From NCBI RefSeq assembly GCF_058153355.1, contig NZ_CM177019.1: a stretch of DNA of 64,000 nucleotides, one strand, 5' to 3'. The notes below the pieces were generated by a model. That model searched no databases and had not been told where the DNA came from. It worked only from the letters and a program-made list of their open reading frames with translations. Shown here in pieces: positions 1-63,371 of the stretch. Position 1 is the first letter of the stretch. Each line of letters starts with the position of its first letter. The position numbers were made by a program, and so were the translations under genes.

Positions 1-63
1 ATAGTCCTTCGCTCTCCGGCCACTTGCAGGCTATGATAGTTCTCCAGCCACAGGAGAACGTTA

Positions 64-957
64 ATGAAACCGCAGGTTTATCACGTCGATGCTTTTACCG
101 CTCAACCGTTTCGCGGCAATTCTGCCGGTGTTGTTTTTCCCGCCGATAAACTTAGCGAAGCGCAAATGCAGCTTATCGCCCGCGAATTAGGTCATTCGGA
201 AACTGCTTTTCTGCTGCACTGCGACGACAGCGATGTACACGTTCGATACTTTACGCCAACGGTTGAAGTGCCAATTTGCGGTCACGCAACGGTGGCTGCG
301 CACTATGTGCGTTCAAAGGTATTAGGTTTGGGAAATTGCACGGTCTGGCAAACGTCGCTGGCAGGAAAACATCGCGTGACTATCGAAAAGCACAACGATG
401 ATTATCGTATTTCGCTGGAACAAGGTACGCCGGGCTTTGAGCCACCGCTGGAAGGTGAAACACGTGCGGCGATTATCAACGCATTGCATCTTACCGAAGA
501 CAATATTCTGCCGGGTTTGCCAATCCAGGTGGCAACCACAGGACACTCAAAAGTGATGATCCCGTTGAAACCAGAAGTGGATATCGACGCCCTTTCGCCT
601 GACCTTGCTGCGCTGACCGCTATTAGTAAACAGATTGGCTGCAATGGTTTTTTCCCGTTCCAGATCCGCCCTGGCAAAAATGAAACCGATGGTCATATGT
701 TCTCACCAGCGATAGGTATTGTGGAAGATCCGGTGACCGGGAATGCCAATGGCCCGATGGGCGCATGGTTGGTACATCACAACTTACTACCCCATGATGG
801 CAGCGTGTTGCGTGTTAAAGGCCATCAGGGGCGCGCACTGGGGCGTGACGGCGTGATTGATGTGACGGTGACAATTCGAGATAACCAACCGGAGAAAGTT
901 ACCATTTCCGGCACGGCGGTGATTCTTTTCCATGCTGAATGGGCCATTGATTTTTGA
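64..957 (+). CDS. yddE: PhzF-family isomerase-like protein YddE
   Basis: 297-aa ORF from track; PhzF/DapF-like fold signature (CGHAT motif); conserved position next to nhoA as in K-12. Confidence 0.85.
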   Translation: MKPQVYHVDAFTAQPFRGNSAGVVFPADKLSEAQMQLIARELGHSETAFLLHCDDSDVHVRYFTPTVEVPICGHATVAAHYVRSKVLGLGNCTVWQTSLAGKHRVTIEKHNDDYRISLEQGTPGFEPPLEGETRAAIINALHLTEDNILPGLPIQVATTGHSKVMIPLKPEVDIDALSPDLAALTAISKQIGCNGFFPFQIRPGKNETDGHMFSPAIGIVEDPVTGNANGPMGAWLVHHNLLPHDGSVLRVKGHQGRALGRDGVIDVTVTIRDNQPEKVTISGTAVILFHAEWAIDF

Positions 958-964
958 TACCGTT

Positions 965-1040
965 GCCTGATGCGCTTCGCTTATCAGGCCTACAACCGGG
1001 CTAATGTGGGCCGGTTGTAGGCGTTTACGCCGCATCCGGC
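965..1040. repeat. REP/BIME element (two inverted palindromic units gcctgatgcg...cgcatccggc)
   Basis: Seen in sequence: GCCTGATGCG and its inverse GCCGCATCCGGC flanking a short spacer in the convergent yddE/nhoA intergenic region. Confidence 0.6.
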
Positions 1041-1052
1041 CCCTGGCACAAA

Positions 1053-1898
1053 CTATTTCCCCGCCTCCGGATGCGTATCAAACGCCGCCATCACCAACGC
1101 CAGTTCATCCACAGTAAAGCCATGCTTTGCGTCATCTACGCCCAGACCAAACTGCTCCTGCATCACGGCATATAACGACGCCACATCCGGTAGATTTCGC
1201 TGCTCCACTGCATGTCCATTTTCATAATGGGTGAAATGAAAATTGGTCAGTGTCAGTTTGCCACCGTCCGGCAAATGGCGGCACATCAGCAAATGATGGC
1301 GAAAATGCGATTGCGGCCAGTGCGCAGACCAGAAATTGCCCATTATATAATCGCTTTGTTGCTGCTCGCAGAGATCAAAACGGTACATCGACTGCCAGTG
1401 CTGATGATGATTAAACTGCAACACCCAATCATCACCCTCCTGTAACAACCGATACTCTCCGTGTGGCGTGATCTGCACGAGATCGGGAACTAAACGAATC
1501 GGCGCGGTTAGCGTCTGTCCACCGAAACCGACATCAGCAATCCATTTTTCCCCTTCCAGTTCCACCAACAACAAACGATGGGTGCGCGGCGGTAATGCTG
1601 GCGGATTAGATAACACTACGCGCCCTAACAGACTGCGTACCTGAAAACCCAGCTCGCGTAACACCCGCTCAAACACGCCATTCTGCTCAAAGCAGTAACC
1701 ACCACGCCGGGCGAGCACCAATTTCTCTTCCAGCGATTGATCATCAAGCTGCATTTCTCTCGGCAGTAAAACATCGAGATTTTCAAATGGAATGGTGCAA
1801 TTGTGTTTCAGGTGTAATGCGCGCAGCGTTTCGATATTGACCGCAGCCGCTCCCGACCAGTTAATGCGGGTAAAATAGTGATTCAGAATGGGCGTCAT
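1053..1898 (-). CDS. nhoA: N-hydroxyarylamine O-acetyltransferase
   Basis: 281-aa ORF, arylamine N-acetyltransferase family (catalytic Cys in GGYCFEQN context); expected length and neighbourhood. Confidence 0.9.
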   Translation of the reverse strand: MTPILNHYFTRINWSGAAAVNIETLRALHLKHNCTIPFENLDVLLPREMQLDDQSLEEKLVLARRGGYCFEQNGVFERVLRELGFQVRSLLGRVVLSNPPALPPRTHRLLLVELEGEKWIADVGFGGQTLTAPIRLVPDLVQITPHGEYRLLQEGDDWVLQFNHHQHWQSMYRFDLCEQQQSDYIMGNFWSAHWPQSHFRHHLLMCRHLPDGGKLTLTNFHFTHYENGHAVEQRNLPDVASLYAVMQEQFGLGVDDAKHGFTVDELALVMAAFDTHPEAGK

Positions 1899-2072
1899 CA
1901 GGCGTTTCCGTTTGTGGTTTTCTCAATTTATAACCTGGAATAGACGCCGCACCGGCTATTTTGTGCGATCGCGGACATGCATCACGTTCGCAAATCGCCA
2001 ATCCCGTTAATTTCGTTGCTTATTGCGTTACGAGCTACGCTTTTAAAACACCCTTCATAGCGAGGCGATATC

Positions 2073-2642
2073 GTGAGCCGATTCATCCCTGTCGAATTAC
2101 ACCATGCCAGCCGTCTGTTAAATCATGGCCCAACTGTCTTGATCACCAGTTTCGATGAGCAATCCCAGCGGCGTAACATTATGGCAGCAGCTTGGTCAAT
2201 GCCGGTGGAGTTTGAACCGCCACACGTGGCAATTGTGGTAGATAAATCGACATGGACCAGGGACTTGATTGAACGTAATGGTAAGTTTGGCATCGTTATC
2301 CCGGGTGTTGCAGCAACTAACTGGACGTGGGCGGTGGGAAGTGTCTCGGGTCGAGAAGAAGATAAATTTAATTGCTATGGCATTCCGGTTGTGAAAGGTC
2401 CGGTGCTTGGATTGCCGCTGGTTGAAGAGAAATGTCTGGCATGGATGGAGTGTCGATTGCTACCAGCGACTTCTGCGCAAGAAAAATACGATACGCTATT
2501 TGGCGAAGTGGTATCGGCAGCGGCAGACGCACGAGTATTTGTCGAAGGCCGCTGGCAGTTTGATGATGACAAACTCAATACACTACATCATTTAGGTGCT
2601 GGCACGTTTGTTACCAGCGGGAAGCGAGTTACGGCAGGTTAA
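2073..2642 (+). CDS. yddH: flavin reductase-like domain protein YddH
   Basis: 189-aa ORF; flavin reductase-like fold; K-12 synteny. Confidence 0.8.
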   Translation: MSRFIPVELHHASRLLNHGPTVLITSFDEQSQRRNIMAAAWSMPVEFEPPHVAIVVDKSTWTRDLIERNGKFGIVIPGVAATNWTWAVGSVSGREEDKFNCYGIPVVKGPVLGLPLVEEKCLAWMECRLLPATSAQEKYDTLFGEVVSAAADARVFVEGRWQFDDDKLNTLHHLGAGTFVTSGKRVTAG

Positions 2643-2645
2643 GCA

Positions 2646-2873
2646 TTACATGCTGTAACCAGGTTTCTTTATCAGCGTCTCCATTTGGGGCGCAATTTCG
2701 GCGTCCCAGACAGCTTGCCATGATTCTGGTTGAATCTGCTGTAGAGCAATGCTTATCGAACTGTCTTTACTGTTCAGATGGCGAATAATAACGTCGGTAA
2801 TATCTGCAGCAAGTGCTGCTTTTTGTTGTTCGTCCAGTTCACGTGGAAAACATTTAATGTCTATGTGCGGCAT
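2646..2873 (-). CDS. pptA: tautomerase PptA (4-oxalocrotonate tautomerase family)
   Basis: ORF-track entry 2646..2912 trimmed to internal Met giving MPHIDIKCF... (catalytic Pro1 after Met removal), 75 aa; CAT start codon on minus strand at 2871-2873. Confidence 0.85.
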
Positions 2874-3177
2874 GATTGTGCTCCTTTTGAAAGATGTCAG
2901 TAAAATTAACACACGTTGTGAATGTTATGTGTCCGGTGATGCTTTTTTACGGCAATAATGCCTACTTGAATTTGTACAGATTTGTACTACACCCTTTTAA
3001 ATAAAGCGCCAACAAAAAACGTCAACTTGCAGAATATATTCTTCGCCAACATGCCATTAAGAAACATCAAGTTCCCGGCTTGCCAATTTATTAACGCCCA
3101 TTATAGTTATTCTTGCCCTCACAAAAATTTTCATCCGTAATTACCCCCAATAAAAGTCCATTCTGGAGACGCTTAAG

Positions 3178-5154
3178 ATGCAGCTTAATCATATTGTTAA
3201 AAGTCTGCTAATAACGGGATTATTCACCACCAGTTCTTTGCCACTCCTCGCGGCGGAAGCCCCTAAAGACGCCACCGCAGCCACGCAACAAGCAAACAAT
3301 TTACTCTACAACCAGTTGCCGTTTTCTGATAACACTGACTTTACTGATGCCCATAAAGGTTTTGTTGCCCCTATCCCTCAAGACGTGATTAAGGGCGAAA
3401 AAGGAAATGTTATCTGGGATCCACAACAATACGCTTTTATTAAAGAAGGTGATAAAGCCCCTGATACGGTGAATCCAAGTTTATGGCGTCAGGCGCAACT
3501 GATAAATATCAGCGGATTATTTGAAGTGACTGAAGGTGTCTATCAGATTCGTAACCTCGATTTATCAAATATGACCATCATTGAAGGCAAAGAGGGTATT
3601 ACCATCGTTGATCCCCTTGTTTCAGCAGAAAGAGCCAAAGTGGGTATGGATCTCTATTACAAAAATCGCGACAAAAAACCGGTAGTAGCGGTTATCTACA
3701 CACACAGTCATGTCGATCACTACGGTGGTGTTCGCGGCGTAATTGATGAAGCTGACGTTAAATCAGGCAAAGTTAAAATCTACGCGCCAGCCGGATTTTT
3801 GGAGGAAGCCGTTTCCGAAAATATTATGGCTGGCAATGTGATGAGCCGACGAGCCAGTTATATGTATGGCAACTTATTGAAACCTGATGTTAAAGGCCAG
3901 GTTGGCGCGGGACTGGGAACAACCACTTCAGCAGGAACGGTCACGTTGATTGCTCCTACTAACTACATCACCAAAACCGGACAAAAAGAAACTATTGACG
4001 GGTTGACCTATGATTTCTTGATGGCGCCAGGCTCTGAAGCACCTTCTGAAATGCTGTGGTTTATTGAAGAAAAGAAACTGATCGAAACCGCCGAAGATGT
4101 TACGCATACCCTTCATAACACCTATTCGCTGCGTGGGGCTAAAATTCGCCAACCGCTGCCGTGGTCAAAATATATTAACGAAGCTCTCAATTTATGGGGA
4201 GATAAAGCCGAGATTATTCTCGCTCAACATCACTGGCCAACCTGGGGCAACGATAACGTGGTCAAACTGCTTAAAAGCCAGCGTGATTTGTATCGTTACA
4301 TCAATGATCAAACTCTGCGTATGGCAAATCAAGGGATGACCCGTGATGAAATTGCCGCAAACTTTAAACTGCCCTCTTCACTGGCTAATACCTGGGCGAA
4401 TCGCGGCTATTACGGTTCGGTAAGTCATGACGTGAAAGCAACTTACGTGCTTTATCTCGGCTGGTTTGATGGTAACCCCGCGACGCTTGATGAACTGCCA
4501 CCAGAAGAAGGCGCAAAAAAATTCGTCGAGTATATGGGCGGTGCTGATGCCATTTTACAGAAAGCCAAACAAGATTATGACCAGGGTAATTTCCGCTGGG
4601 TTGCTCAGGTTGTAAGTAAGGTGGTGTTTGCGGATCCAAACAACCAGGCAGCGAGAAATCTGGAAGCTGATGCGCTTGAGCAGTTAGGCTATCAGGCTGA
4701 ATCTGGGCCGTGGCGTAATTTTTATCTCACAGGCGCACAGGAATTGCGTAATGGCGTACAAAAATTACCAACACCAAATACTGCCAGCCCTGACACCGTG
4801 CGTGCAATGACGCCAGAGATGTTCTTTGATTATCTTGCCGTCCATATTAATGGTGAGAAAGCGGCAGATGCCAAAGCTGTACTGAATTTCGATTTTGGTG
4901 AAGATGGCGGCACCTATAAAGTGGAGCTTGAAAATGGTGTTCTCAATCATACCGATGGTGTAAAGGCTTCGGATGCTGATGCCACTATCACTCTGTCTCG
5001 TGATGTATTGAACAAAATTGTACTAAAAGAAGAGACGCTGAAAGAAGCCACGGACAAAGGAGATGTCAAAATTACTGGCAATGCGGAAAAACTCAACGAG
5101 CTGTTAGGTTATATGGATAATTTTGAATTTTGGTTCAATATAGTGACACCATAA
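3178..5154 (+). CDS. secreted alkyl/aryl-sulfatase homologue (metallo-beta-lactamase fold, YjcS/SdsA1-like); accessory gene absent from K-12 at this locus
   Basis: 658 aa; N-terminal signal peptide (MQLNHIVKSLLITGLFTTSSLPLLAAEAP); metallo-beta-lactamase metal motif THSHVDHYGG; overall length and C-terminal region consistent with alkyl sulfatase dimerisation and SCP2-like domains; GGAGA RBS upstream. Confidence 0.8.
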   Translation: MQLNHIVKSLLITGLFTTSSLPLLAAEAPKDATAATQQANNLLYNQLPFSDNTDFTDAHKGFVAPIPQDVIKGEKGNVIWDPQQYAFIKEGDKAPDTVNPSLWRQAQLINISGLFEVTEGVYQIRNLDLSNMTIIEGKEGITIVDPLVSAERAKVGMDLYYKNRDKKPVVAVIYTHSHVDHYGGVRGVIDEADVKSGKVKIYAPAGFLEEAVSENIMAGNVMSRRASYMYGNLLKPDVKGQVGAGLGTTTSAGTVTLIAPTNYITKTGQKETIDGLTYDFLMAPGSEAPSEMLWFIEEKKLIETAEDVTHTLHNTYSLRGAKIRQPLPWSKYINEALNLWGDKAEIILAQHHWPTWGNDNVVKLLKSQRDLYRYINDQTLRMANQGMTRDEIAANFKLPSSLANTWANRGYYGSVSHDVKATYVLYLGWFDGNPATLDELPPEEGAKKFVEYMGGADAILQKAKQDYDQGNFRWVAQVVSKVVFADPNNQAARNLEADALEQLGYQAESGPWRNFYLTGAQELRNGVQKLPTPNTASPDTVRAMTPEMFFDYLAVHINGEKAADAKAVLNFDFGEDGGTYKVELENGVLNHTDGVKASDADATITLSRDVLNKIVLKEETLKEATDKGDVKITGNAEKLNELLGYMDNFEFWFNIVTP

Positions 5155-5165
5155 ATTTACTGTAT

Positions 5166-5192
5166 ACCGGGCAGGTATCCTGCCCTTTTTTG
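5166..5192 (+). terminator. intrinsic terminator after sulfatase gene
   Basis: GGGCAGG-tatc-CTGCCC hairpin followed by TTTTTT, 12 nt downstream of the stop codon. Confidence 0.65.
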
Positions 5193-5200
5193 GTTAAAAA

Positions 5201-6298
5201 ATGGCTGAACAAAGAAAAACGCATCACTCGTGGAAAACCCGCCGCGATATGGTTATTCGCGGCATGACGATTAGTTTGCCATGGTTTGCTTTTATCAATG
5301 TCAGTTTTGCATTGATGATTTTGCTGCGCCGTGTTCTGTTTAATGACCTTACTCCTCCCTGGTTAAATGAAAAAAGCCTTATACATTCTATTGATATATC
5401 TGCAACGGGTATTCTGCTGATTTGCAGTGGTTTACTACTCATCCCTCGGCAAAAAACATTACCTATCCAGGTGCTATTAGTTGCCCTGAGCCTGCTATGG
5501 TCATGGTGTAGTTATCACTTTATTGCGTACTGGACGCTGCAGTTTGCTTATCCACTATGTGTATTATTAATGCTTAGTGGCGTTGTCGCACTTTATTTCC
5601 ATACCCCATCATTGCTCGCATTTGTCATTCCCTTATGGTTCACCACTCCAATAGCGAGCCTTATGCTTAATCAACAGGTTAATATTCATTTTGCTGTTAT
5701 CTGGTGTATTTTTTCACTGGCGTTATATGGTGGGCGACTCATTTTGTTACGTTGGTTTGAAGAAGCATGGGAACAAAACAGCTATAACAACCAGTTAATT
5801 AATCGCCTTGATGCATTAGCACATCGTGATCCTTTAACTGGGATAGCAAACCGACGAGCAATGAACAGTATCTTACACGACGCGATAGATAACGGCGGGT
5901 CATTTGCTCTTATTATGCTGGATGTCGATTTTTTTAAACGCTACAACGACACCTACGGGCATCCTGCTGGGGATCGTTGTCTGATACAAGTTGCCGACGC
6001 TCTACAGCATTCAACTCGCCAGTCGGAGGATGTTGTTGTCCGTTATGGTGGCGAAGAGTTTGCCATCATACTTTTTAATGCAACATTGCCGGAAGCAGAG
6101 ACGGTAGCAGCCAGAGTGAAGCAAGAACTTAAACTGGCAGCTATCCCGCATCAGGCATCTGCTGTTAATGCATTCGTTACGGTTAGTCAGGGGATTACCT
6201 GTTCAGCTCCCGCAAAAACGGCTGAACAAATTATTTCAGATGCCGACGCCGCGTTATACCGGGCGAAAGAAAGTGGGCGAAATCGATGGGAAAAATAA
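5201..6298 (+). CDS. membrane-anchored diguanylate cyclase (GGDEF domain, GGEEF active site); accessory, not one of the K-12 DGCs
   Basis: 365-aa ORF; N-terminal about 200 aa strongly hydrophobic (multiple predicted TM helices); C-terminal GGDEF domain with RYGGEEF motif, DxLTG-like HRDPLTGIANRR upstream; true start may be an internal Met (codon 17 or 22). Confidence 0.8.
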   Translation: MAEQRKTHHSWKTRRDMVIRGMTISLPWFAFINVSFALMILLRRVLFNDLTPPWLNEKSLIHSIDISATGILLICSGLLLIPRQKTLPIQVLLVALSLLWSWCSYHFIAYWTLQFAYPLCVLLMLSGVVALYFHTPSLLAFVIPLWFTTPIASLMLNQQVNIHFAVIWCIFSLALYGGRLILLRWFEEAWEQNSYNNQLINRLDALAHRDPLTGIANRRAMNSILHDAIDNGGSFALIMLDVDFFKRYNDTYGHPAGDRCLIQVADALQHSTRQSEDVVVRYGGEEFAIILFNATLPEAETVAARVKQELKLAAIPHQASAVNAFVTVSQGITCSAPAKTAEQIISDADAALYRAKESGRNRWEK

Positions 6299-6916
6299 TT
6301 AAATGATTCCATTCCTCTTTAGTATCCCTTTTAGCTTTGGTATCTGACATACAGCATCAGCGATCGCACTGATATTCGTGGCATTATCCTGAAACCATTC
6401 ATGCCCAGGCCCCCATGTGCGCATAGTGCAAAGATAACAGTCCACCAGCGTTAGTTGCTCACCAAACGCATAAGGTTCAGCGGTCAATTGTGAATTCAGC
6501 CAGATATAAAGCGATTTGCGATATTCAATAACATTCTTCTTCAACTGTTCAGGTGCGTCAGGAGCCCAACGCTCAGGGTAATCGGCGAAGGTAAACGTTG
6601 GATAGACATTAGCGACCAGCCAGACCAATAACCGTTGAAACTGCTGACGTTCGGCGTGCCCAATCGGTGGCGAAAAATTCGGGTGGCGGTCGAGAACCAT
6701 CAATGCAATCGCCGCTGTCTCCGTCATAATCTCGCCATTTTCCAGCACCATTGTCGGAATCTGGCACAACGGGTTCAGGTTTTTCAGTATCTCGCGAGAA
6801 GTTCCCTCGCGATCAAACCCACTGACATCAACGAACTGATAAGGAATATCAGCCAGTGATAGCATCAGCTCACTGATTGTAGAGCCCCATCCGGGTACGC
6901 CATACACCTTAATCAT
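6299..6916 (-). CDS. yncG: glutathione S-transferase homologue YncG
   Basis: 205-aa ORF, GST fold; adjacent to ansP as in K-12. Confidence 0.85.
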   Translation of the reverse strand: MIKVYGVPGWGSTISELMLSLADIPYQFVDVSGFDREGTSREILKNLNPLCQIPTMVLENGEIMTETAAIALMVLDRHPNFSPPIGHAERQQFQRLLVWLVANVYPTFTFADYPERWAPDAPEQLKKNVIEYRKSLYIWLNSQLTAEPYAFGEQLTLVDCYLCTMRTWGPGHEWFQDNATNISAIADAVCQIPKLKGILKRNGII

Positions 6917-14833: not shown

Positions 14834-15282
14834 TGAATCAGTCGCTTACCCTTGCCTTTTTGATTGCCGCAGGGATTGGTCTGGTCGTCCAGAACACGCT
14901 AATGGTGCGCATCACCCAGACCTCCTCTACCATTCTCATCGCCATGTTGCTGAACTCACTGGTAGGGATTGTGCTCTTTGTTTCTATTTTATGGTTTAAA
15001 CAAGGCATGGCGGGGTTTGGCGAACTGGTGTCCAGCGTACGCTGGTGGACACTTATACCCGGCTTGCTGGGATCTTTTTTTGTCTTCGCCAGTATCAGCG
15101 GATATCAGAATTTGGGAGCGGCGACAACTATTGCAGTACTGGTCGCCAGCCAGCTAATTGGCGGTCTGGTGCTGGATATCTTCCGCAGTCATGGCGTACC
15201 ACTACGGGCGTTGATCGGCCCAATTTGTGGCGCAATTTTACTTGTGGTTGGTGCCTGGCTGGTGGCCAGGCGCACATTTTAA
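14833..15282 (+). CDS. ydcZ: inner-membrane protein YdcZ (DMT-like)
   Basis: 149-aa hydrophobic ORF; start overlaps mnaT stop (ATGA). Confidence 0.8.
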   Translation: MNQSLTLAFLIAAGIGLVVQNTLMVRITQTSSTILIAMLLNSLVGIVLFVSILWFKQGMAGFGELVSSVRWWTLIPGLLGSFFVFASISGYQNLGAATTIAVLVASQLIGGLVLDIFRSHGVPLRALIGPICGAILLVVGAWLVARRTF

Positions 15283-15517
15283 TCAGAGGATGGTGCCGCC
15301 TTTGGTTAACTGTTCGTGGCGCGCTTCCATATCCTTCTTTATGCTTGCGACCGTGATGGGCGATCGCTGTGCGCAGACGCTGCTGCTGGGTGTAGCGATC
15401 TTCCCGACTTAACTCCGCGTCATCGCTCAGGGCGATTAATAATTCGTTCATATGGGCAATGACGCTCTCTTCAATCGCGGCATCCACGCGCGCGATGACT
15501 TCATCCAGATGCGACAT
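15128..15517 (-). pseudogene. ydcY: ydcY with +1 frameshift giving altered, extended C-terminus
   Basis: First 61 codons match YdcY (MSHLDEVIARVDAAIEES...HGRKHKE); after an extra C at about 15333 the frame changes. The alternative frame reads DMEARHEQLTKGGTIL-stop, which is the expected YdcY C-terminus (77 aa in K-12, recalled from memory). Confidence 0.6.
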
Positions 15518-16088: not shown

Positions 16089-16122
16089 CGTACTGTCAGA
16101 GAAATCAACTCTCTGACAGTAC
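16089..16122. terminator. strong hairpin between yncL and patD (bidirectional terminator)
   Basis: CGTACTGTCAGAG-aaatcaa-CTCTGACAGTACG 13-bp perfect stem. Confidence 0.6.
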
Positions 16123-16162
16123 GCAAGATCTTCTCATACTCTTACGATCTGCAATATTATCC

Positions 16163-17587
16163 TTAATGCTTAACCATGACGTGGCGGACGACGGTGTAAT
16201 CCTCCAGCCCATAAAGTGACATATCCTTGCCGTAACCAGAAAGTTTCTGCCCACCGTGCGGCATTTCACTTACCAGCATGAAATGGGTATTGACCCAGGT
16301 ACAACCATATTGCAGCCGTGCGCTGACGCGATGCGCCCTGCCCACATCTTTCGTCCATACCGAAGATGCAAGTCCGTACTGGCTGTCATTCGCCCAGTTC
16401 ACCACCTGTTCTTCATTGTCAAAGGCCGTCACGCTCACCACCGGACCAAATACCTCTTTTTGCACGATGGCATCGTCCTGTAACGCGCCAGCCAGCAGCG
16501 TAGGCGCGTAGTAATAACCATTACCCTTGCGCTTTTCACCACCGGTGATCACTTTGATGTGCCCTGTCTCTTTCGCCTCTTCTACCGCCTTGCTGACACG
16601 TTCGAGATGTGCCAGCGAACTTAACGGTCCAAGCTCTGTGGACTCGTCATCCGGCGCACCCGATTTTAACGTTGCCACTGCAGCACCGAGTTTTTCCACC
16701 AGCGTATCGTAAATACCTTTTTGCGCGTAGATCCGACAAGCCGCAGTACAATCCTGTCCGGCATTGTAATAGCCAAAAGTACGAACACCTTCGACCACTG
16801 CTTCAATATCAGCATCATCAAAAACAATCACTGGCGCTTTGCCACCAAGTTCCATATGAGTACGCTTAATAGACGGCGCTGTATGGCTGATGATGTGCTC
16901 GCCGGTGGCGATAGAGCCCGTCAGCGACACCATCCGCACTTTGGGATGTCCGGTCAGCGGATCGCCCACTGTTTTGCCTCTGCCAAACAGCACATTAATC
17001 ACGCCAGCCGGGAAGATATCTTTCGCCAGTTCAGCCAGCTTCAACGCTGTCAGCGGCGTAATTTCTGATGGTTTAAGCACTACGCAGTTCCCTGCCGCCA
17101 GCGCCGGAGCCAGTTTCCACGCGGCCATCATCAGCGGATAATTCCACGGTGCGATAGAAGCCACGACCCCCAACGGATCCCGACGGATCATTGAAGTATG
17201 ACCTTCAAGGTATTCGCCGGCCGCCAGACCATTGAGGCAGCGCGCCGCCCCGGCGAAAAAGCGAAAGACATCGACAATCGCCGGAATTTCATCATTGAAC
17301 GCACTATGCAGCGGTTTGCCACAATTACGGGACTCCAGTTCGGCAAAAACCTGACCATTTTCTTCAATAACATCGGCCAGTTTCAGCAGGCATTCCGCAC
17401 GCGCTTTCGGCGTGGTTTGCCCCCATTCGGCAAATGCTGCATCTGCCGCGCGAACAGCAGCATCCACCTGCTCTGCGGATGCCTCGGCAATCTCCAGTAA
17501 AACGTCCCCCGTTGCCGGATTATAGACAGGCTGTTTTTCCCCTTCGCCGCTAACCAGTTCTCCGTTAATCAGTAACTTATGTTGCAT
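16163..17587 (-). CDS. patD: gamma-aminobutyraldehyde dehydrogenase
   Basis: 474-aa aldehyde dehydrogenase (catalytic Cys in GQDCTAAC context, ELGGKAP Glu motif); last gene of ydcSTUV-patD cluster. Confidence 0.9.
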
Positions 17588-17608: not shown

Positions 17609-18403
17609 TTATTGACCATTGTCGCCTTCGCGGGTTAGCCACCAGGCTCCCAGGATCGGCAAGGTTGTTACCAACATAACCAGCAGTGCCACGACGTTGG
17701 TTACCGGTACATCACGTGGTCGCCCAAGCTGATTGAGCAACCACAACGGTAACGTTCGTTCATGACCTGCCGTAAAGGTCGTCACGATGATTTCATCGAA
17801 CGACAAAGCAAACGCCAGCATTCCTCCTGCCAGAAGCGCCGAACTGAGATTCGGCAACACTACGTAGCGGAAGGTTTGCCAGCCATTGGCCCCAAGATCC
17901 ATTGACGCCTCAACCAGACTCCAGGAGGTGCGGCGAAAACGGGCGATGACATTGTTAAACACCACCACTACGCAAAAAGTCGCATGACCGACCACGATGG
18001 TGAAAAATCCCGGCTCCAGATTGATGGTTTTAAAAGCAGTTAATAGCGCCAGACCAGTGACAATGCCCGGCAGCGCAATGGGCAGCAGCAATAACAATGA
18101 AATGGCGCTTTTACCGAAAAAGTCCCGACGCCACAGCGCAGCAGCGGCCAGTGACCCTAATACCAGCGCAATTAATGTCGCCAGCGCCGCCACTTTAAGT
18201 GACAGTGTCACAGCATCAAGAATATCACTACGCTGTGCTGCCACGCTAAACCAGCGCAGCGTCAGGCCTTGCGGTGGAAAACTAAACGCCGCATCTTCAG
18301 TGTTAAACGCATAGGCGGCGATAATCAGGATGGGGAAATGTAGGAAAACCACGCCGCCCCAAGCCGCCAGTTTGAGGAAAAACGGTGCGCGTTCAGAGTG
18401 CAT
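17609..18403 (-). CDS. ydcV: ABC transporter permease YdcV
   Basis: 264-aa polytopic membrane protein of the binding-protein-dependent permease family. Confidence 0.85.
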
Positions 18404-19334
18404 CGAACGCTCCCAGACGTTTCACGAACGCCAGGTACAGTGCGATGAGAACAATCGGCACCAGGGTGAATGCCGCCGCCATCGGCATATTGCCAATCGC
18501 CCCCTGCTGGGAATAAACCATATTGCCGATAAAATATCCTGGAGGGCCAACCAGCTGCGGAACGATAAAATCGCCCAGTGTGAGTGAAAAGGTAAAGATA
18601 GAGCCAGCGGCAATACCCGGGATCGCCAGCGGCAGCACCACATAGCGAAAGGTTTGCCGTGGACGCGCGCCAAGATCAGCCGACGCCTGCAACAATGACG
18701 GCGGCAAACGCTCAAGCGCCGCCTGCACGGGCAGGATCATGAACGGCAGCCAGATATAGAGAAACACCAGAAAGCGCCCCAGCCCGGAAGTTGACAACGT
18801 GTTACCGCCCACCGCGGGTAATGTAAGGAACGCTGTCAGCAGTGGTTCCAGCCCCAGATGTTGTAAAAACCACTGCGCCACGCCATCTTTTGCCAGCAAT
18901 AATGTCCAGGCATAAGCTTTAACAATGTAGCTTGCCCACATTGGCAGCATCACCGCAATATAGAAGAACGCTTTCATTTTCCCGCTGGTATAGCGCGCCA
19001 TATACCACGCCATCGGAAAAGCCAGAATGGCGCTGGCGATAGTGACAGCCACAGCCATGGTTAGCGTGCGAAGGATGATGTCGTAATTCGCCGGATTAAA
19101 CAGCGCGCGGATATTCGCCAGCGTCAGTTCTGGCGTTACCGACATGGTGAAATCGTCAAAGGTATAAAAGCCCTGCCATAATAGCGTCAGCAGCGAGCCG
19201 AAATAGATGATACCAAACCACATCAGCGGACCAAGCAGCAGCAAAAACAGCCCCAGTCCCGGTTTCCGCCAGAAGAATCCTGACACCTTACCCAGATTTG
19301 GACGTGAAGGTGATTGCAATACGTTCATCGCCAT
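18393..19334 (-). CDS. ydcU: ABC transporter permease YdcU
   Basis: 313-aa polytopic permease; overlaps ydcV start by 11 nt. Confidence 0.85.
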
Positions 19335-20348
19335 TCACCTCTCCTCAACCAGCGGCACCATTACATCGCGCGACCAGGAAACCATCACCTGTTGTCCGGG
19401 CGTGAGCGTGGCAGGCAGTTCTTCGCCTGTGATATTGGCCTGACTCACCAGCAGTTTTTCACCGCCATTCAGTCTCAGTTCAAAACGGGTCGCCGCGCCC
19501 TGATACTGCACCGCCTGGATCGTGCCATTAACTTGCACTTCGCCGGGGGTGTTGAGGCGGATATGTTCCGATCTCAGGGCAAAACTGCCTATCATGCCGC
19601 AAAGATTCTCGGCCATTAGCGGCTCAAAAACGTTGGATGTCCCGACGAATCCGGCAACAAACGGCGTGCGCGGACGCATATAGAGATCGCGCGGGGAATC
19701 GACCTGCTCAATACGACCGTTGTTGAATACCGCAACACGATCGGACATCGATAACGCTTCGCCCTGATCGTGGGTGACGAAAATAAAGGTGATGCCAAGA
19801 GACTATTGCAGCTTTTTCAGCTCCAGTTGCATCTGCTCACGCAGCTTAAGATCCAGCGCGCCGAGCGGTTCATCCAGCAGCAATACGCGCGGTTCATTCA
19901 CTAACGCTCTGGCAATGGCAACCCGCTGACGCTGACCACCAGAAAGTTGTGACGGTTTACGTTGCTGTACAAATCCGAGCGCCACTTTCTCCAGCGCCTC
20001 TTGCGCCATTACGTGTCGCTGTTTTTTATCCACCCCTTTGACCATCAGCCCATAGGCCACGTTGTCAAGAATCGACATATGCGGAAAAAGCGCGTAGTCC
20101 TGGAAAACGGTATTCACGTCCCGCTCCCACGGTGGCAGATTGCTGGCGGGTTTACCAAAGATAGATATAGTCCCGCCGGAAAGCTGTTCGAATCCAGCAA
20201 TCAGGCGCAGGCAGGTGGTTTTGCCGGAGCCAGACGGCCCCAGCATTGAGAAAAACTCACCATCTTTTATCGCAATACTGACACCATCTACCGCGCGCAC
20301 ATCACCATACAGTCGCGATACGTTGTCAAACTCCACTGCGTACGTCAT
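19335..20348 (-). pseudogene. ydcT: ABC transporter ATPase ydcT interrupted by in-frame TAG stop
   Basis: N-terminal 181 codons (Walker A GPSGSGKTT, signature LSGGQRQR, Walker B LLLDEPLGALD) end at TAG (plus-strand cta at 19803-19805); reading continues in the same frame as SLGITFIFVTHDQGEA... through the C-terminal 137-aa ORF. Confidence 0.8.
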
Positions 20349-20365: not shown

Positions 20366-21511
20366 TTAGCGGCCGCCCATAATGGCAATATAATCCTGCG
20401 TCCAGCGACTGTAGGGAACAAACTTGCCCCCTTCTGCTATAGGCGTTTTCCAGAAGGCGATTTTATCGAAATAGTTAAAACCGTTTGTTTCACAACCTTT
20501 TTCGCCTAATAACGGACTGGCTTTACACCCTTCCGGCACTACCGGTAACGAGCCAAACCAGGCCGCCACATCGCCCTGCACTTTTGGCGTTAATGACCAG
20601 TTCATCCATTTGTAGGCGCAAACCGGATGTTTCGCTTCGCTATGTAGCATGGTGGTGTCAGCCCAACCGGTAACGCCCTCCTTCGGGAAAACGGTAGCGA
20701 CAGGCTGGCCTTCGGCTTTCAGGGCGTTGGCCTGATAGGGCCATGCACTGGAAGCAACCACACCCTCGTTTTTGAAATCGCTCATTTGCACGGTAGTGTC
20801 ATGCCAGTAGCGATGGATCAAACTATGTTGATCGCACAGCACTTTCAGCACCGCCTGGTACTGTTCTTCGGTGAGTTGATACGGATCGCTGATGCCCAAC
20901 TGCGGCTGAGTGGCTTTAACGAACAACGCAGCATCCGCAATATAAATAGGGCCATCATAAGCCTGAACGCGGCCTTTATTGCTCTTACCGTCCGGCAGAT
21001 TCTGCGCAACAAAAACCACTTGCCAGCTATCCGGCGGCGTCGGGAAGGTTTTCGTGTTGTACATCAGCAGGTTCGGCCCCCATTGGTAAGGAGTGCCGTA
21101 AACTTTGCCGCCAACGTTAAACCAGTCGCCTTTAACCACGCGCGGATCGAGCGCTTTCCAGTTGGGAATCAATGCGGTATTAATCGGCTGCACGCGTTTA
21201 CCCATAATCAGGCGCAGCGAGGCATCGCCGGACGCCGTAACCAGATCGTAACCCCCTTTGGTCATCAGACTGACCATTTCATCGGACGTCGCGGCGGTTT
21301 TTACATTCACCGCGCAACCTGTCTCTTTTTCGAATTGCGTTACCCAGTCGTATTGTTTATCGGTTTGTCCGCGTTCGATGTATCCCGGCCAGGCGATAAT
21401 ATCCAGTCGCCCTTCCGGTTTATCTAAATTGGTGGGCGGTTCGGCGGCGTGAGCGGTCATTATTATCATGGTGAGCGCACACAGGCTGCTGCGGGCAAAT
21501 GTCTTGCTCAT
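20366..21511 (-). CDS. ydcS: periplasmic substrate-binding protein YdcS (polyamine-type ABC transporter)
   Basis: 381 aa with signal peptide; PotD/PotF-like binding protein. Confidence 0.85.
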   Translation of the reverse strand: MSKTFARSSLCALTMIIMTAHAAEPPTNLDKPEGRLDIIAWPGYIERGQTDKQYDWVTQFEKETGCAVNVKTAATSDEMVSLMTKGGYDLVTASGDASLRLIMGKRVQPINTALIPNWKALDPRVVKGDWFNVGGKVYGTPYQWGPNLLMYNTKTFPTPPDSWQVVFVAQNLPDGKSNKGRVQAYDGPIYIADAALFVKATQPQLGISDPYQLTEEQYQAVLKVLCDQHSLIHRYWHDTTVQMSDFKNEGVVASSAWPYQANALKAEGQPVATVFPKEGVTGWADTTMLHSEAKHPVCAYKWMNWSLTPKVQGDVAAWFGSLPVVPEGCKASPLLGEKGCETNGFNYFDKIAFWKTPIAEGGKFVPYSRWTQDYIAIMGGR

Positions 21512-23240: not shown

Positions 23241-23480
<240 letters not shown>

Positions 23481-23655
23481 TTACCTCCGTGTGTAATGTG
23501 CTCGAAAATAGCACTTAATCGCCGCAACGGCAGAATGCAATGCAAAATCAGGAAGGAAGATTCCAGAATTTCTTTGCGCTAATTTGCAAAACTGAATAAT
23601 AACCTCAAGAAACGATCGGCATCATAGCGGCAAAAGGTGAGAAAAAGGTGGCGGG

Positions 23656-49984: not shown

Positions 49985-52747
<2,763 letters not shown>

Positions 52748-57872: not shown

Positions 57873-60800
57873 TTAGAACGTTTTCTTGAAGTTCAGCATC
57901 ACGCCTTTATCGCTGATACCATCCTCTTTCCAGTGGTAAGCATCCAGATTCAGCGAACTTTCTTTGCTGCTGTACTTCACGCCGACGCTTGCCAGACTGT
58001 TGATGCCGCCGCCCTTTTGCCCATCATCGACATTAAAGTGCTGGCTGCCTGCGCCTGCCAGGCTTGCCGTGCGCTGGCTCTTCGTGTAGCTCAGGTTCGG
58101 GCCGCCTTCCAGCGTGGCGTTCGCGCTCCAGCCGTCTTTGCCTGCGTAGTCCAGCTTCAGCCCGACGATACTGTCCACCGCCGTTTCGCTGCCGCTGTTC
58201 ATGCTCAGGTTAAAGTCTCCGGCATTACGCTCCTGATAACCGCCTTCCAGCGTGTGACGCAGTTTCACACCCGCATATGGCGTGATTTTCAGCCCTTCGC
58301 GCGGTTCAAAGGTTTTCGCCCCTTCGCTGCGGAACTCCAGGTACTGCTGTTTCACGTTGGTATCCGCCGTTTTGCTAACGTCGCCGTAAGCCACCGAACG
58401 GCTGCTGTCCAGTTGGTGAATATCGTAACGCAGCGCGTTATTCCAGCTCATACCGTTGTCAAAGGACATCTGATGCTTCAGGCCAAAGAACTGGCTGTAG
58501 CCGCCTGTAACACCATTATCACCCGCTTTCTGCGCACCATCGCCGTCCAGACGGGCGATACCGTACTCCAGGCTCATGGTCTGGTTTTCGCTCAGGTCGA
58601 GGGTTTTGCGCAGCGCCAGCATGTCGTACTCGGTATTATTCCCCAGCTCTGCACGCGGATCGCCTTTCGCCACCACGTTAAATGCCAGACCGTTGCCCAT
58701 CTTCGGTGCTGCGTCCGCCAACATGCTGAAGCGGTTACTCAACACGCGGGCCTCACGAAATACCGTGGTAGCCTGGCTCCCGCTGACTTGTTTCAGCGCG
58801 CTGTTCAGCTCTGCAGTGGTGCCAACGTTCAGACTGGTATACAGCTCGTTGTTGGTGTAACCCGCATCCAGCGCTTTTGCCACGTCATTCACTGAGGCAT
58901 CCGTCGCCACATCGGTGTAGGCGTTTTTGCTCATGGTCACGTCAACGTTGCCGCTGGCGTCGGTACTGCCTGTCGCCTGCCAGACAACAGATGTCGAAGT
59001 GATCGCTTGCGCATCAGTCAGGTTGCTGCCTTGCACCACATCATCAAAGCTGACGGTTTTGTCCGCCGTTCCCGCCGCAAAATCGGTGTTGATCTCCACG
59101 CCGTTCATACTGGCGTTATTGAGCATCAGCTTACCGGCGCTACCGTCGGCGTTCGTCCCCACCACGTAACCATTGAGGTTGTTCATGCCATCGTTGCGGC
59201 TAACGGAAGAAGAATGGGTGCCGTCGTATGGCGTAATGGTGGGTTCTTCCGGCGCGGTAAAGTCGACATAGTGCACTTCCGTACCGTCTCCGCCTTCGCC
59301 ACTACCCTCCATCGCCGTGCCAGATTGTTTAATTAATCCGGAACCATTCACGCTGTCGTCAATATAAACAGTGCCGTTGTTAACAATATGACCATTGCTC
59401 CCGAGCTTGCTGAAAGCCCAGGAGTTATTGGCGTAGATATTAATCGTACCGTTGTTTTCAACCACACCATCCGCTTTCGCGTCCGATGCTAATTGCATTC
59501 CAACCATACCTGTATGCGAAGTGCCTTCGCTACCAATATTGATAGTGCCATTGTTGACCATTTTTGCGCTGCCGTGCGCATTCATGGCGATGGTATTATT
59601 TTTATCAATATTGATAGTGCCATCGTTAATTGCCCGGCTACCGGCGTTATTATTTGGCGTCGTAACCTGGCCGTTAATCACACCTGTCGTACCGTTATAC
59701 AACGTATGCCCATTACCGCTGGTAGCGATATCAGCATCACCATTCACTGTACCCCAGTTGTTGAAATGCCCAGCCCAAAGTCCGTTATCAAGAAGATCGA
59801 CAACACCACCGACCAGGTTATTAAAGGTCGCGTTTTTATCAACCGAACCACTGTGAACCGTTCCTGCGTTATTGAAAGTGGCTGCGGCAGAAAAATTCAC
59901 TTTATTGACCGTTCCATCCGCTTCGTTATTCATCACGGCAGAAGCTGAGGCCCCTTTCCAGGCTGTTACCGTCCCGGCGTTATAAAACGTACTGGCCCAT
60001 TGTTCAACAGTGTTCATGGTGCCGGAATTGTTGATAACAGAACCCGCAACGGTTGTACCTACCAACCCGGTCACCGTACCTTCGTTAGTGAACACGCCGC
60101 CATCCACAGAAACGGTTTTTGTCGTGCCCTTATTGGTGTATTCCCCACCGGTTGCGATATCAACCTCATTAATACTGCCCGTGGTTTCATTGACCAAACG
60201 GCCAAAGTCAGCCACGGTGACAGGCCCCCCGGTAACCGTACCCGCGTTGGTTACCAGGGTTTCGGCGGTTGCCGTGATATCAGTCGTACCGCCATATGAA
60301 GACAGGTTAAGCGTTTCCCCGTCAGCCGAAATAATGTCACCATTTCTCCAGCTTAATGAAACAAACCCGTCAGTCGGGTTATAGGCGTTATTGTCCTGGC
60401 ATTTCCCAAAAGTACAGATGGTTCCGTAATTAACAATAGTCCCGCTGCCATCGTTATAGAACGCCTGCCCGTTTTCGGCATTGATATTGATGATGCCAGT
60501 CTGATCATTAATCGCAGTGGCACCATTGTAAACAGCCATGCCGACCAATTTATTTGGCCCCAGCGTATCATCATCATTTTCATTTACTTCCAGATTTATA
60601 GTTCCCTGGTTAATAATAATGTTACCTGGCTTCATCGCGGCCATACCGGCACCGGAATTATAGAGTGTTATTTCACCACCCTGCTGGTTAATGGCGGTAG
60701 AATTAACGCTGGCACCAGAACTGTCTGTACCCACAGCCATCCCGACAGCATAATCTTTGGCGCTGTCATGAGCGATATTGGACGCCAGACTGGAAGTATC

Positions 60801-63371
60801 GTTTTCATCAACCCATAATGCGTCAATGAAAATCTTACCCATATTGTCAATGGTTGAATTATTGGAGGCCAGCATGCCAACACTCCCCCGGCCGTACATT
60901 TGGATCTCACCGGCAGTATTATTTGAAGCGGTGCCATTGTTGCCTGCCGTCATCCCCGTCAGACTAATGACTTGATTATTAAAAATTAAAGGGTCACTCA
61001 AACCTTGAGCGTTCAGACTATTGAAAATACGTCCCTGCGCGAGTACCTTACTGGTGATGGCACTGTTATTAACAACTCGACCACCATAGACGCTCAAATA
61101 CGCAGAACTAGCAGAGTCTGATGTATTCCCCTCTACGCCGTAGATAGAAATCGTTACGTTGTTATTATTTACAGCTAGCGACTCTTCACCAGTAGCCCTG
61201 GCAAAGCCAATATTACCCAGTTCTACATCACCATTATTTATCATCTGCGAACCGGAATTCACCAGTACAACCTGTGATGTGTCACTATTATAATGATCAA
61301 ATGTATTTATATCTTTTAGGATAAAAGTGGCGTTGCGGCCAAGTTCTAAATGGGCTCGGTTATTCAGTTGAATGATATCGCCTAATCCAAGCGGAAAAAC
61401 ACCACTGATTGTTGAATCCCCATTTAGATACAGAGTAGAGTGCCCATCGATTTTGATAACAGGCGTATCGCCATAACCATTACGTTTTAAAGCAGGTGTG
61501 GAGCCATCCTGTAGAGTATTTTCTTCGCCAGCTAAATGGATACCACCATTAATTTCGACGGTATTACCGTCACCCGACACAACCAGACCATTAATATTTT
61601 CCTGGCTGCCATCCATTTCATTATAGATACGAGAAGTGACTTCACTGTCAGCAACAACGGTAAGATTGCCATTTAATACGATATTATTGTCGTGTCCCTG
61701 CACCTGAATGCCAACAGAAGGGGTAAAAAAGTCATTTATTGAATGCTCTCCGGCCTGATTTTTATCCACCAGAATATTACCGGTAATTTCAACTTCATTG
61801 CCATCACCGGCTACATTTACCCCTGTCGCAACACTGCCGGTCACATTAAGCTCATTTGTCGCCAGCGTCATGGCGTTATTATTTCCAGAGACATCCAGAC
61901 CGGTTGAATAATCCCCTACATCCACACGGCCAGCCAGAGAAATCAGACCATCATCTCCGATGATGCGAATCCCGGTACTGAAATTATCAGCAATGATGTC
62001 CCCCACATTGATAAGGGTAGAATGATTACCCTCAATCAGAATCCCTGTCGCATTGGCCTCTGAACTACCATTACTGACGGAAATATCCCCCCTGTTAATG
62101 AACGTCGACGCATCACCACTGAGAGAAACACCCTGCGAATTTTCATCCACGACCGTTATATTTCCTTTGTTGCTGACGATCGCGCCATTACCCTCAACAT
62201 CAATACCCCGTGCAGCATTGCTAACGTATAAATCCCCTTCCTGTATAACCGTCGCATTATTACCAACGATTTTGCTGCCCGTTGAATTTTGCCCATCAAC
62301 CGTCATATGTCCTTTATTATCGGTCCTGACATCATTACCGCTAATAACGGCCCCTATTCCGCCGTTATTGACAGTGGAGTCGCCAGTGTTATTTAAGATT
62401 GTACGATCGCCATTGACGATAACCGCCGTGCCAGCATCGACCACCGTCTGACCGTTATTATTGATGGTTATATTATCGCCGGTCAGGATACCGACCACCG
62501 AACCTTCACCGACAGCCTCTGTTTTACCCTCGTTTGTCAGCGCAATGTTGTTACCATTAATCATCATCACCGTGCCGCCATTCAGGGCCGTGTTACCGCC
62601 CTGGTCAGTGATAATCGCATCATTAACGGTAATTATTCTGCCCGTTGTTCCATCAGACACGACACTGGCTAACTGTGTGACGTGGAGTTTACCTTCGTCA
62701 TCGTAGCGCCATTCCATATCACCTGTGGTACTCACACCACTAAACATGGCGGTATGAGTCTCTTCATGGTTTTCCCACTCAGTCACAATGGTTTTTCGGC
62801 CATCTTTTGCCGTCAGCGTGTAGCTACCATCTTCATTTTGGGTATAAGTGAACGTCGCCCCGCGAATCTTCAGGGTTTGCGCGTCCTCGTCCCATGTCAC
62901 ATTGTTATCAAAGACAACGGGTTCTGTTCTCGGGGGGTCAACATCATCACCGCTATTGTCGGGTGGAGTAACATTACCGCCGTTATCTGGCTTTACAGGT
63001 ATACCTGAATCTTCATCACTGGGAACGGGTAGCGGTAGAGGGCCATTATCATCTGGCGGTATGGGCTGGGGAAAAGAAGAGTGAGCAGAATGATCATTGT
63101 CATGAGACAATTCAATCACTGCGAGTGTTGCCAGTACCGCCGTGGCACCTAATGCCAGTAACGAGCTGAAACCATTATTTGTAACAACAGCACATTTTTC
63201 TGGCACTGTTTTCAACTTCGTTGACGGTCGGGCGTGCCCTTCTGACTGACATGTCATTTGAGAGCTTCTGCGCATACTGTCTGCACTCTCGCCTTCTGTT
63301 ATTTCCGCCCCCCAGCTTTGGCCACTTAACGCTATAGCGATACACGCTGATAATAACGTTTTCTTTTGCAT
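57873..63371 (-). CDS. ydbA: large AIDA-I/Ag43-type autotransporter adhesin YdbA, apparently intact
   Basis: 1832-aa uninterrupted ORF; signal peptide MQKKTLLSACIAIALSGQSWGA; long Gly/Asn/Thr-rich passenger with degenerate beta-helix repeats; C-terminal beta-barrel ending ...LNFKKTF; no IS sequence inside. Confidence 0.85.
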   Translation of the reverse strand: MQKKTLLSACIAIALSGQSWGAEITEGESADSMRRSSQMTCQSEGHARPSTKLKTVPEKCAVVTNNGFSSLLALGATAVLATLAVIELSHDNDHSAHSSFPQPIPPDDNGPLPLPVPSDEDSGIPVKPDNGGNVTPPDNSGDDVDPPRTEPVVFDNNVTWDEDAQTLKIRGATFTYTQNEDGSYTLTAKDGRKTIVTEWENHEETHTAMFSGVSTTGDMEWRYDDEGKLHVTQLASVVSDGTTGRIITVNDAIITDQGGNTALNGGTVMMINGNNIALTNEGKTEAVGEGSVVGILTGDNITINNNGQTVVDAGTAVIVNGDRTILNNTGDSTVNNGGIGAVISGNDVRTDNKGHMTVDGQNSTGSKIVGNNATVIQEGDLYVSNAARGIDVEGNGAIVSNKGNITVVDENSQGVSLSGDASTFINRGDISVSNGSSEANATGILIEGNHSTLINVGDIIADNFSTGIRIIGDDGLISLAGRVDVGDYSTGLDVSGNNNAMTLATNELNVTGSVATGVNVAGDGNEVEITGNILVDKNQAGEHSINDFFTPSVGIQVQGHDNNIVLNGNLTVVADSEVTSRIYNEMDGSQENINGLVVSGDGNTVEINGGIHLAGEENTLQDGSTPALKRNGYGDTPVIKIDGHSTLYLNGDSTISGVFPLGLGDIIQLNNRAHLELGRNATFILKDINTFDHYNSDTSQVVLVNSGSQMINNGDVELGNIGFARATGEESLAVNNNNVTISIYGVEGNTSDSASSAYLSVYGGRVVNNSAITSKVLAQGRIFNSLNAQGLSDPLIFNNQVISLTGMTAGNNGTASNNTAGEIQMYGRGSVGMLASNNSTIDNMGKIFIDALWVDENDTSSLASNIAHDSAKDYAVGMAVGTDSSGASVNSTAINQQGGEITLYNSGAGMAAMKPGNIIINQGTINLEVNENDDDTLGPNKLVGMAVYNGATAINDQTGIININAENGQAFYNDGSGTIVNYGTICTFGKCQDNNAYNPTDGFVSLSWRNGDIISADGETLNLSSYGGTTDITATAETLVTNAGTVTGGPVTVADFGRLVNETTGSINEVDIATGGEYTNKGTTKTVSVDGGVFTNEGTVTGLVGTTVAGSVINNSGTMNTVEQWASTFYNAGTVTAWKGASASAVMNNEADGTVNKVNFSAAATFNNAGTVHSGSVDKNATFNNLVGGVVDLLDNGLWAGHFNNWGTVNGDADIATSGNGHTLYNGTTGVINGQVTTPNNNAGSRAINDGTINIDKNNTIAMNAHGSAKMVNNGTINIGSEGTSHTGMVGMQLASDAKADGVVENNGTINIYANNSWAFSKLGSNGHIVNNGTVYIDDSVNGSGLIKQSGTAMEGSGEGGDGTEVHYVDFTAPEEPTITPYDGTHSSSVSRNDGMNNLNGYVVGTNADGSAGKLMLNNASMNGVEINTDFAAGTADKTVSFDDVVQGSNLTDAQAITSTSVVWQATGSTDASGNVDVTMSKNAYTDVATDASVNDVAKALDAGYTNNELYTSLNVGTTAELNSALKQVSGSQATTVFREARVLSNRFSMLADAAPKMGNGLAFNVVAKGDPRAELGNNTEYDMLALRKTLDLSENQTMSLEYGIARLDGDGAQKAGDNGVTGGYSQFFGLKHQMSFDNGMSWNNALRYDIHQLDSSRSVAYGDVSKTADTNVKQQYLEFRSEGAKTFEPREGLKITPYAGVKLRHTLEGGYQERNAGDFNLSMNSGSETAVDSIVGLKLDYAGKDGWSANATLEGGPNLSYTKSQRTASLAGAGSQHFNVDDGQKGGGINSLASVGVKYSSKESSLNLDAYHWKEDGISDKGVMLNFKKTF

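Follow-up and report, generated by a model that had tools for sequence, protein, structure and literature searches.

YdcT is the ATP-binding subunit of the YdcSTUV ABC transporter, and its best solved homologue, once the interruption described below is repaired, is Escherichia coli PotA, the ATPase of the spermidine/putrescine importer (8zx1 and 8y5f, E = 4e-77, residues 9-249). The two proteins share the layout of Walker A, Q-loop, LSGGQ signature, Walker B, D-loop, and H-loop, and both carry a C-terminal regulatory domain. However, YdcT scores 353.9 bits with the NCBIfam PotA equivalog NF006987 (cut-off 482) and 340.7 bits with the polyamine subfamily model TIGR01187 (cut-off 355.6). Because these scores fall under the curated cut-offs, YdcT is best classed as PotA-like rather than as PotA, that is, as a paralogue and not an orthologue; the comparison with PotA-type ATPases made in the first-pass annotation of this DNA holds as a resemblance only. 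In E. coli K-12, the reported loss of natural plasmid transformation is 6.7-fold for ydcS and 9.5-fold for ydcV, with a loss of less than half in the ydcT mutant, and YdcS has been reported to be a periplasmic PHB synthase (review PMC6135910).

Here, we describe a ydcT gene that is interrupted by an in-frame amber codon. It is located within a window, the whole stretch of DNA that was analyzed, of 64,000 nucleotides. The features of the operon are given below in the direction of transcription; the motifs from Walker A to the D-loop were placed by alignments to PotA and to orthologues.

20366 to 21511, minus strand: ydcS, periplasmic substrate-binding protein, intact, 381 aa (98.2% amino acid identity to SMS-3-5, no stop)
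19335 to 20348, minus strand: ydcT, ABC-transporter ATP-binding subunit, read as a pseudogene (translation, synteny, SMS-3-5 alignment, Pfam)
19803 to 20348, minus strand: N-terminal fragment of ydcT, 181 aa (ORF list; exact product called on Logan contigs)
20240 to 20217, minus strand: Walker A, G37-T44
Within the N-terminal fragment: Q-loop, Q83
19946 to 19932, minus strand: signature LSGGQ, L135-Q139
19883 to 19869, minus strand: Walker B, L156-E160
19859 to 19851, minus strand: D-loop, A164-L165-D166
19803 to 19805, minus strand: amber codon TAG, codon 182, from CAG (Gln) (CAG in relatives; T also in SRR8656992 and SRR11661570)
19335 to 19802, minus strand: remainder of ydcT, codons 183-337, predicted to be untranslated (ORF list, Pfam, alignments)
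19772 to 19770, minus strand: H-loop, H193, 3' of the stop (alignments)
19580 to 19356, minus strand: TOBE_2 domain, 3' of the stop (Pfam)
18393 to 19334, minus strand: ydcU, permease, intact, 313 aa (ORF list, SMS-3-5 alignment, annotation of syntenic genes)
17609 to 18403, minus strand: ydcV, permease, intact, 264 aa (ORF list, SMS-3-5 alignment, annotation of syntenic genes)
16163 to 17587, minus strand: patD, gamma-aminobutyraldehyde dehydrogenase, intact, 474 aa, the last gene of the cluster (99.4% amino acid identity to SMS-3-5)

The identity of the gene as ydcT, which had been proposed on first pass, agrees with both synteny and the SMS-3-5 alignment. The locus runs from ydcR into ydcS-ydcT-ydcU-ydcV-patD, as in annotated RefSeq genomes; its flanking genes and gene lengths agree with those of SMS-3-5, MFDS1022581, and 2017-02-2CC, and the ydcT DNA has matches in 5412 of 5426 complete E. 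coli genomes. With Gln restored at the stop, the protein contains the Pfam domains ABC_tran (PF00005, residues 21-162, E = 5e-34) and TOBE_2 (PF08402, residues 257-331, E = 3e-15). The gene is like K-12-type ydcT in locus, gene order, length (337 codons), and encoded protein (about 96% amino acid identity to mainstream YdcT), and is closer still to clade-I ydcT alleles, with about 99% nucleotide identity. It differs from the other aligned YdcT alleles in having TAG instead of CAG at codon 182 and in two replacements, P260S and M306I, found in none of them.

On the minus strand, positions 20348 to 19335 translate as 337 codons in a single frame with a sole internal stop at codon 182. The context reads ...CTG CAA TAG TCT CTT GGC..., where TAG occupies 19805-19803 (CTA at 19803-19805 on the plus strand), and the encoded peptide is ...LELKKLQ-stop-SLGITFIFVTHDQ.... 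The lone in-frame TAG was reported in the first-pass annotation at exactly these coordinates, and translation confirms it. In the ORF list, the gene appears as two pieces, 19803 to 20348 (181 aa) and 19335 to 19748 (137 aa, starting at Met201, the first start codon in frame after the stop). A chance pair of ORFs was rejected because the two halves align to YdcT of E. coli SMS-3-5 in one frame, over residues 1-337 at 96.4% amino acid identity, with exactly one stop. The stop arose by a C>T transition at position 19805 of the coding strand, seen as G>A on the plus strand. The NBD frame is interrupted by this TAG, and as it stands ydcT reads as a pseudogene of the ABC_tran/TOBE_2 family rather than a functional member.

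All six NBD motifs, from Walker A to H193, are present in the ydcT DNA and are invariant among orthologues, with H193 located after the stop. The invariant strand ITFIFVTHDQ, which includes H193, is also downstream, and the alignment to solved PotA continues past the stop through ...LGITFVFVTHDQ.... An earlier placement of the stop ahead of both the D-loop and the H-loop holds for the latter; the D-loop is upstream, so the stop falls between the two. The companion claim, that the H-loop and the C-terminal domain are lost, stands, since H193 and TOBE_2 both lie downstream of codon 182. ATP hydrolysis by MalK, HisP, HlyB, and other ABC ATPases depends on the H-loop histidine, and the strand that carries this residue belongs to the core sheet. 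Translation of the window's gene would terminate at the TAG and release a fragment of 181 residues that keeps the nucleotide-binding motifs up to the D-loop and is without the H193 strand and the whole of TOBE_2. Because the H-loop histidine and a core-sheet strand are missing, this fragment should be inactive and is probably unstable, which would leave the YdcS-YdcU-YdcV importer without its motor. The YdcSTUV transporter would most likely be without a working ATPase.

The host had been taken to be E. coli. The window's ydcT shares 92.6% identity with most E. coli alleles but 98-99% with about 15 genomes, a pattern that argues against a typical E. coli and for an Escherichia of cryptic clade I (about 99%). 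Across the 7-kb operon, identity is 98.2-98.6% to most of the close genomes fetched, 97.8% to 2017-02-2CC, 98.4% to strains EC42405 and 2013C-4282, and 95.3-95.5% to the mainstream strains 2 HS-C and SMS-3-5. EC42405 and 2013C-4282 are cryptic clade I (C-I) strains, and the ANI is >98.3% within C-I and >95.9% between C-I and E. coli sensu stricto (PMC10100065). The window shows the values that mark cryptic clade I (about 98% or more to C-I, about 96% to E. coli) as local identity rather than as whole-genome ANI, and the clade-I-like pattern is repeated across 25-kb blocks. Because this pattern matches that of the C-I strains in PMC10100065, we assign the window to an Escherichia cryptic clade I strain that, judged by its sequence, is not among the complete RefSeq genomes.

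The comparison with clade-I genomes also brought out variable sites elsewhere in the window. At 23244-23528 (minus strand), hicA is missing and hicB survives only as a remnant covering residues 44-138 (82% identity, with a stop). Clade-I-type genomes carry the same remnant, annotated there as a partial pseudogene, whereas hicAB is intact in mainstream E. coli such as SMS-3-5. In several clade-I genomes (L001, L005, L011, L013), patD and yncL are separated by an additional gene for a CatB-related O-acetyltransferase, which is missing from the window (about 16100-16165), EC42405, and SMS-3-5. A large autotransporter gene at 57876-63371 (minus strand; about 1845 aa in 2017-02-2CC) has a protein identity of only 85% to its counterpart in the closest genome, far below the 96-100% of its neighbours. 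Positions 1-6300 (yddE, nhoA, yddH, pptA, a sulfatase, and a GGDEF gene) are collinear with SMS-3-5. Since their place beside yncG is taken in the clade-I genome 2017-02-2CC by type VI secretion genes (Vgr, PAAR, DUF2169), this left end appears to be a variable junction within clade I.

The ancestral state of codon 182 is clear from the relatives. The codon is CAG in all 11 that were aligned (nine C-I-type and two mainstream), as the first guess at the replaced codon had it. The closest of them, MFDS1022581, has 9 differences over 1014 nt. Gln182 is invariant in 20 orthologues drawn from at least 10 genera of enterobacteria (Escherichia, Citrobacter, Trabulsiella, Kosakonia, Lelliottia, Enterobacter, Yokenella, Scandinavium, Phytobacter, and Salmonella). 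A conserved sense codon has thus been replaced by a stop, and the same TAG is found in independent assemblies.

One of these assemblies represents a second clade-I background. The SRR11661570 contig has the ydcT TAG, yet it differs from the window at 351 positions over 20.5 kb, 12 of them inside ydcT. Over the operon, just 6 SNPs in about 6.8 kb set it apart from the complete genome Z0117EC0005, in which the codon is CAG. Both carry a ydcS frameshift (148 + 238 aa, with the RefSeq label 'frameshifted'; positions 8839-9983 of contig L006 from SRR11661570 and 1839-2983 of L002 from Z0117EC0005). In this second lineage, the operon had been inactivated before the ydcT TAG arose in SRR11661570. The two TAG haplotypes differ by 1.4% across the operon, and the flanking differences at 19877 and 19776 limit the tract that they have in common around the TAG to no more than 100 bp (19876-19777). 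Because Z0117EC0005, a near-identical relative of SRR11661570, has CAG, Q182 TAG probably arose twice by independent C>T transitions, the second time in an already broken operon; a very short recombination tract may be the alternative. Inheritance of an old TAG allele by descent was rejected on the grounds of the same 6 SNPs between SRR11661570 and a CAG-bearing genome. The TAG is absent from all 18 C-I-type ydcT alleles in complete genomes, and the exact allele was not found in GTDB species-representative genomes or, with a query degenerate enough to match both mainstream and clade-I backgrounds, in metagenome contigs from JGI. A contig of SRR20034954 (L008) looked like a third carrier because the lookup used the exact protein sequence; it was rejected since its sequence stops at the C of an unmutated CAG, and it has 17 synonymous differences in the N-terminal half of ydcT. 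Contigs L017 and L018 were rejected as contig-end partials of the same kind.

Our reading is that, in this cryptic clade I strain, ydcT very likely became a pseudogene among intact neighbours through a genuine nonsense mutation of recent evolutionary origin. If the TAG were instead a sequencing or assembly error, the true codon would be CAG and ydcT would be intact. Single-base substitutions are the commonest type of error, and the allele is found in no complete RefSeq genome, the best match being 99.1% identical with CAG. However, the exact 181-aa and 137-aa products are recorded in Logan assemblies of public sequencing runs. A Logan contig of SRR8656992 that is 99.99% identical to the window has the same T and differs at 2 of 20,546 positions (20145 and 18957), so that it represents a separate data set. 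The window-type C-terminal ORF is found on three contigs in all (SRR8656992 and two similar ones), and the TAG is present in a different strain, SRR11661570. Since an independent assembly and further contigs have the window allele, an error at this codon is very unlikely; the comparison with other ydcT alleles and independent data, which had been put forward as a check, supports T at codon 182. A literature search on the accessions SRR8656992 and SRR11661570 gave no match. A real TAG could still be read through, by a supE-type glnV suppressor tRNA or in a context-dependent manner, to give full-length, functional YdcT. Consistent with this, the two halves are in frame and nearly unchanged, a Gln-inserting suppressor would give back the exact ancestral residue, and the identical TAG occurs in two backgrounds. 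We regard readthrough as quite improbable nonetheless. The 64-kb window contains no tRNA genes, although an amber-suppressor tRNA could sit elsewhere in the genome, and suppressor alleles are characteristic of laboratory strains derived from K-12 rather than of wild isolates. Downstream of the stop, P260S changes a residue that is invariant in 20 other orthologues. Moreover, the earlier ydcS frameshift of the second background fits neutral decay better than a gene maintained by readthrough, and the allele is absent from the 18 clade-I-type complete genomes. Finally, an active ATPase might be formed from the 181-aa fragment and a C-terminal fragment re-initiated at Met201, given that gene prediction yields both pieces, the first with ABC_tran and the second with TOBE_2, and that the ATG at 19748 is 55 nt 3' of the stop. 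Such a split gene is extremely unlikely, because residues 183-200, with the ITFIFVTHDQ strand and H193, would be absent from both pieces, and Met201 is without a good Shine-Dalgarno (upstream sequence ATCAGGGCGAAGCGTTATCG). At best, re-initiation at Met201 could give a TOBE fragment.

A further possibility accepts the nonsense mutation and questions its neutrality: either loss of YdcT is selected, with truncation just after the D-loop being favoured, or Gln181/Gln182 is unusually mutable. A selected truncation could, for example, uncouple the functions of YdcS and YdcV from ATP hydrolysis or stop unwanted import. In support of this idea are the two TAG haplotypes with their short common tract, the close CAG relative of the second haplotype, and a stop at the adjacent codon, since codon 181 is TAA (CTG TAA CAG, followed by the same 137-aa C-terminal ORF) in two ENA metagenome scaffolds of mainstream-type E. 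coli (L015 3001-3543 and L016 405-947). Against it, an exact-protein search recovers only truncations at codon 182, which is an ascertainment bias, and the truncated-YdcT cluster of 224 members has many end points, from 75 to 297 aa among those listed. The mutated C is not in a Dcm (CCWGG) site, the second TAG sits in an already dead operon, and the allele was not recovered from the GTDB species representatives or JGI metagenome contigs. We therefore consider selection or a hot spot improbable, and the recurrence of TAG in two C-I backgrounds is an only mildly unusual point, a small curiosity beside an ordinary loss of ydcT by nonsense mutation.

The remaining genes of the operon are intact. 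The products of ydcS, ydcU, ydcV, and patD are 98-99% identical to those of SMS-3-5, and none of the four shows decay. The ATG of ydcU is directly 3' of the ydcT TGA, and because the two adjoin, translation of ydcU may normally be coupled to that of ydcT; the 468 nt upstream of ydcU would now be untranslated. A search of these 468 nt in 78-nt windows revealed no C-rich, G-poor rut-like stretch (C/G ≤1.2), and a crude scan of the coding strand of the operon revealed no internal sigma-70-like promoters; neither result is decisive. Polarity on the genes downstream of ydcT is possible but unsupported, and the first-pass suggestion that it affects ydcU, ydcV, and patD remains speculation, given the C/G values after the stop and the intact downstream genes.

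Besides the TAG, 16 substitutions in 7 kb are private to the window lineage when it is set against nine other C-I alleles. Because the neighbours are intact and this private divergence is low, the sequence points to a recent lesion in ydcT. All five private substitutions in ydcT other than the TAG lie downstream of codon 182, and they include P260S (19571), at the invariant proline, and M306I (19431), at a site that is variable among orthologues. The position of the five, together with P260S, gives a hint of relaxed constraint after the stop, in small numbers. Over ydcSTUV, four replacements and the nonsense codon stand against nine synonymous changes, which are too few to prove relaxed selection.

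Two further lineage-specific lesions are present in the window. In ydcY (DUF2526, normally 77 aa; 15128-15517, minus strand), a 1-bp insertion near 15333 (AAAGAAGGATATGG versus AAAGAAGATATGG in SRR11661570 and SMS-3-5) shifts the frame at about codon 62, so that the ORF grows to 129 aa and extends into the antisense of ydcZ. The insertion is about 4 kb from ydcT, and because it is also present in the independent SRR8656992 assembly, the frameshift is real and specific to the lineage. In ynbC (51291-52747, minus strand), a deletion of about 301 bp with a junction near 51650 and 2 nt of microhomology removes residues ~367-466 (relative to the 585 aa of 2017-02-2CC) and puts the rest of the gene out of frame, so that ORFs of 376 aa and 103 aa remain. 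ynbC is probably a second pseudogene in the window.

Loss of ydcT is already known from other lineages of E. coli and Shigella. Natural pseudogenes include a 131-aa frameshift product on 353 contigs and 5'-truncated products of Shigella sonnei on 73 contigs, to which the Q181 TAA allele of mainstream-type E. coli can be added. These lesions are distinct by lineage, and that of the window is Q182 TAG in cryptic clade I, an ordinary gene-inactivating event. The reported roles of YdcS and YdcV may not need YdcT, which could explain why ydcT is more easily lost. For annotation, ydcT should be recorded as a pseudogene in this strain, and a working YdcSTUV should not be assumed in metabolic or transport reconstructions. 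Beyond annotation, the significance is small: the allele adds a further case to the repeated natural losses of ydcT in Escherichia and Shigella, a pattern suggesting that many niches do not require the ATPase.
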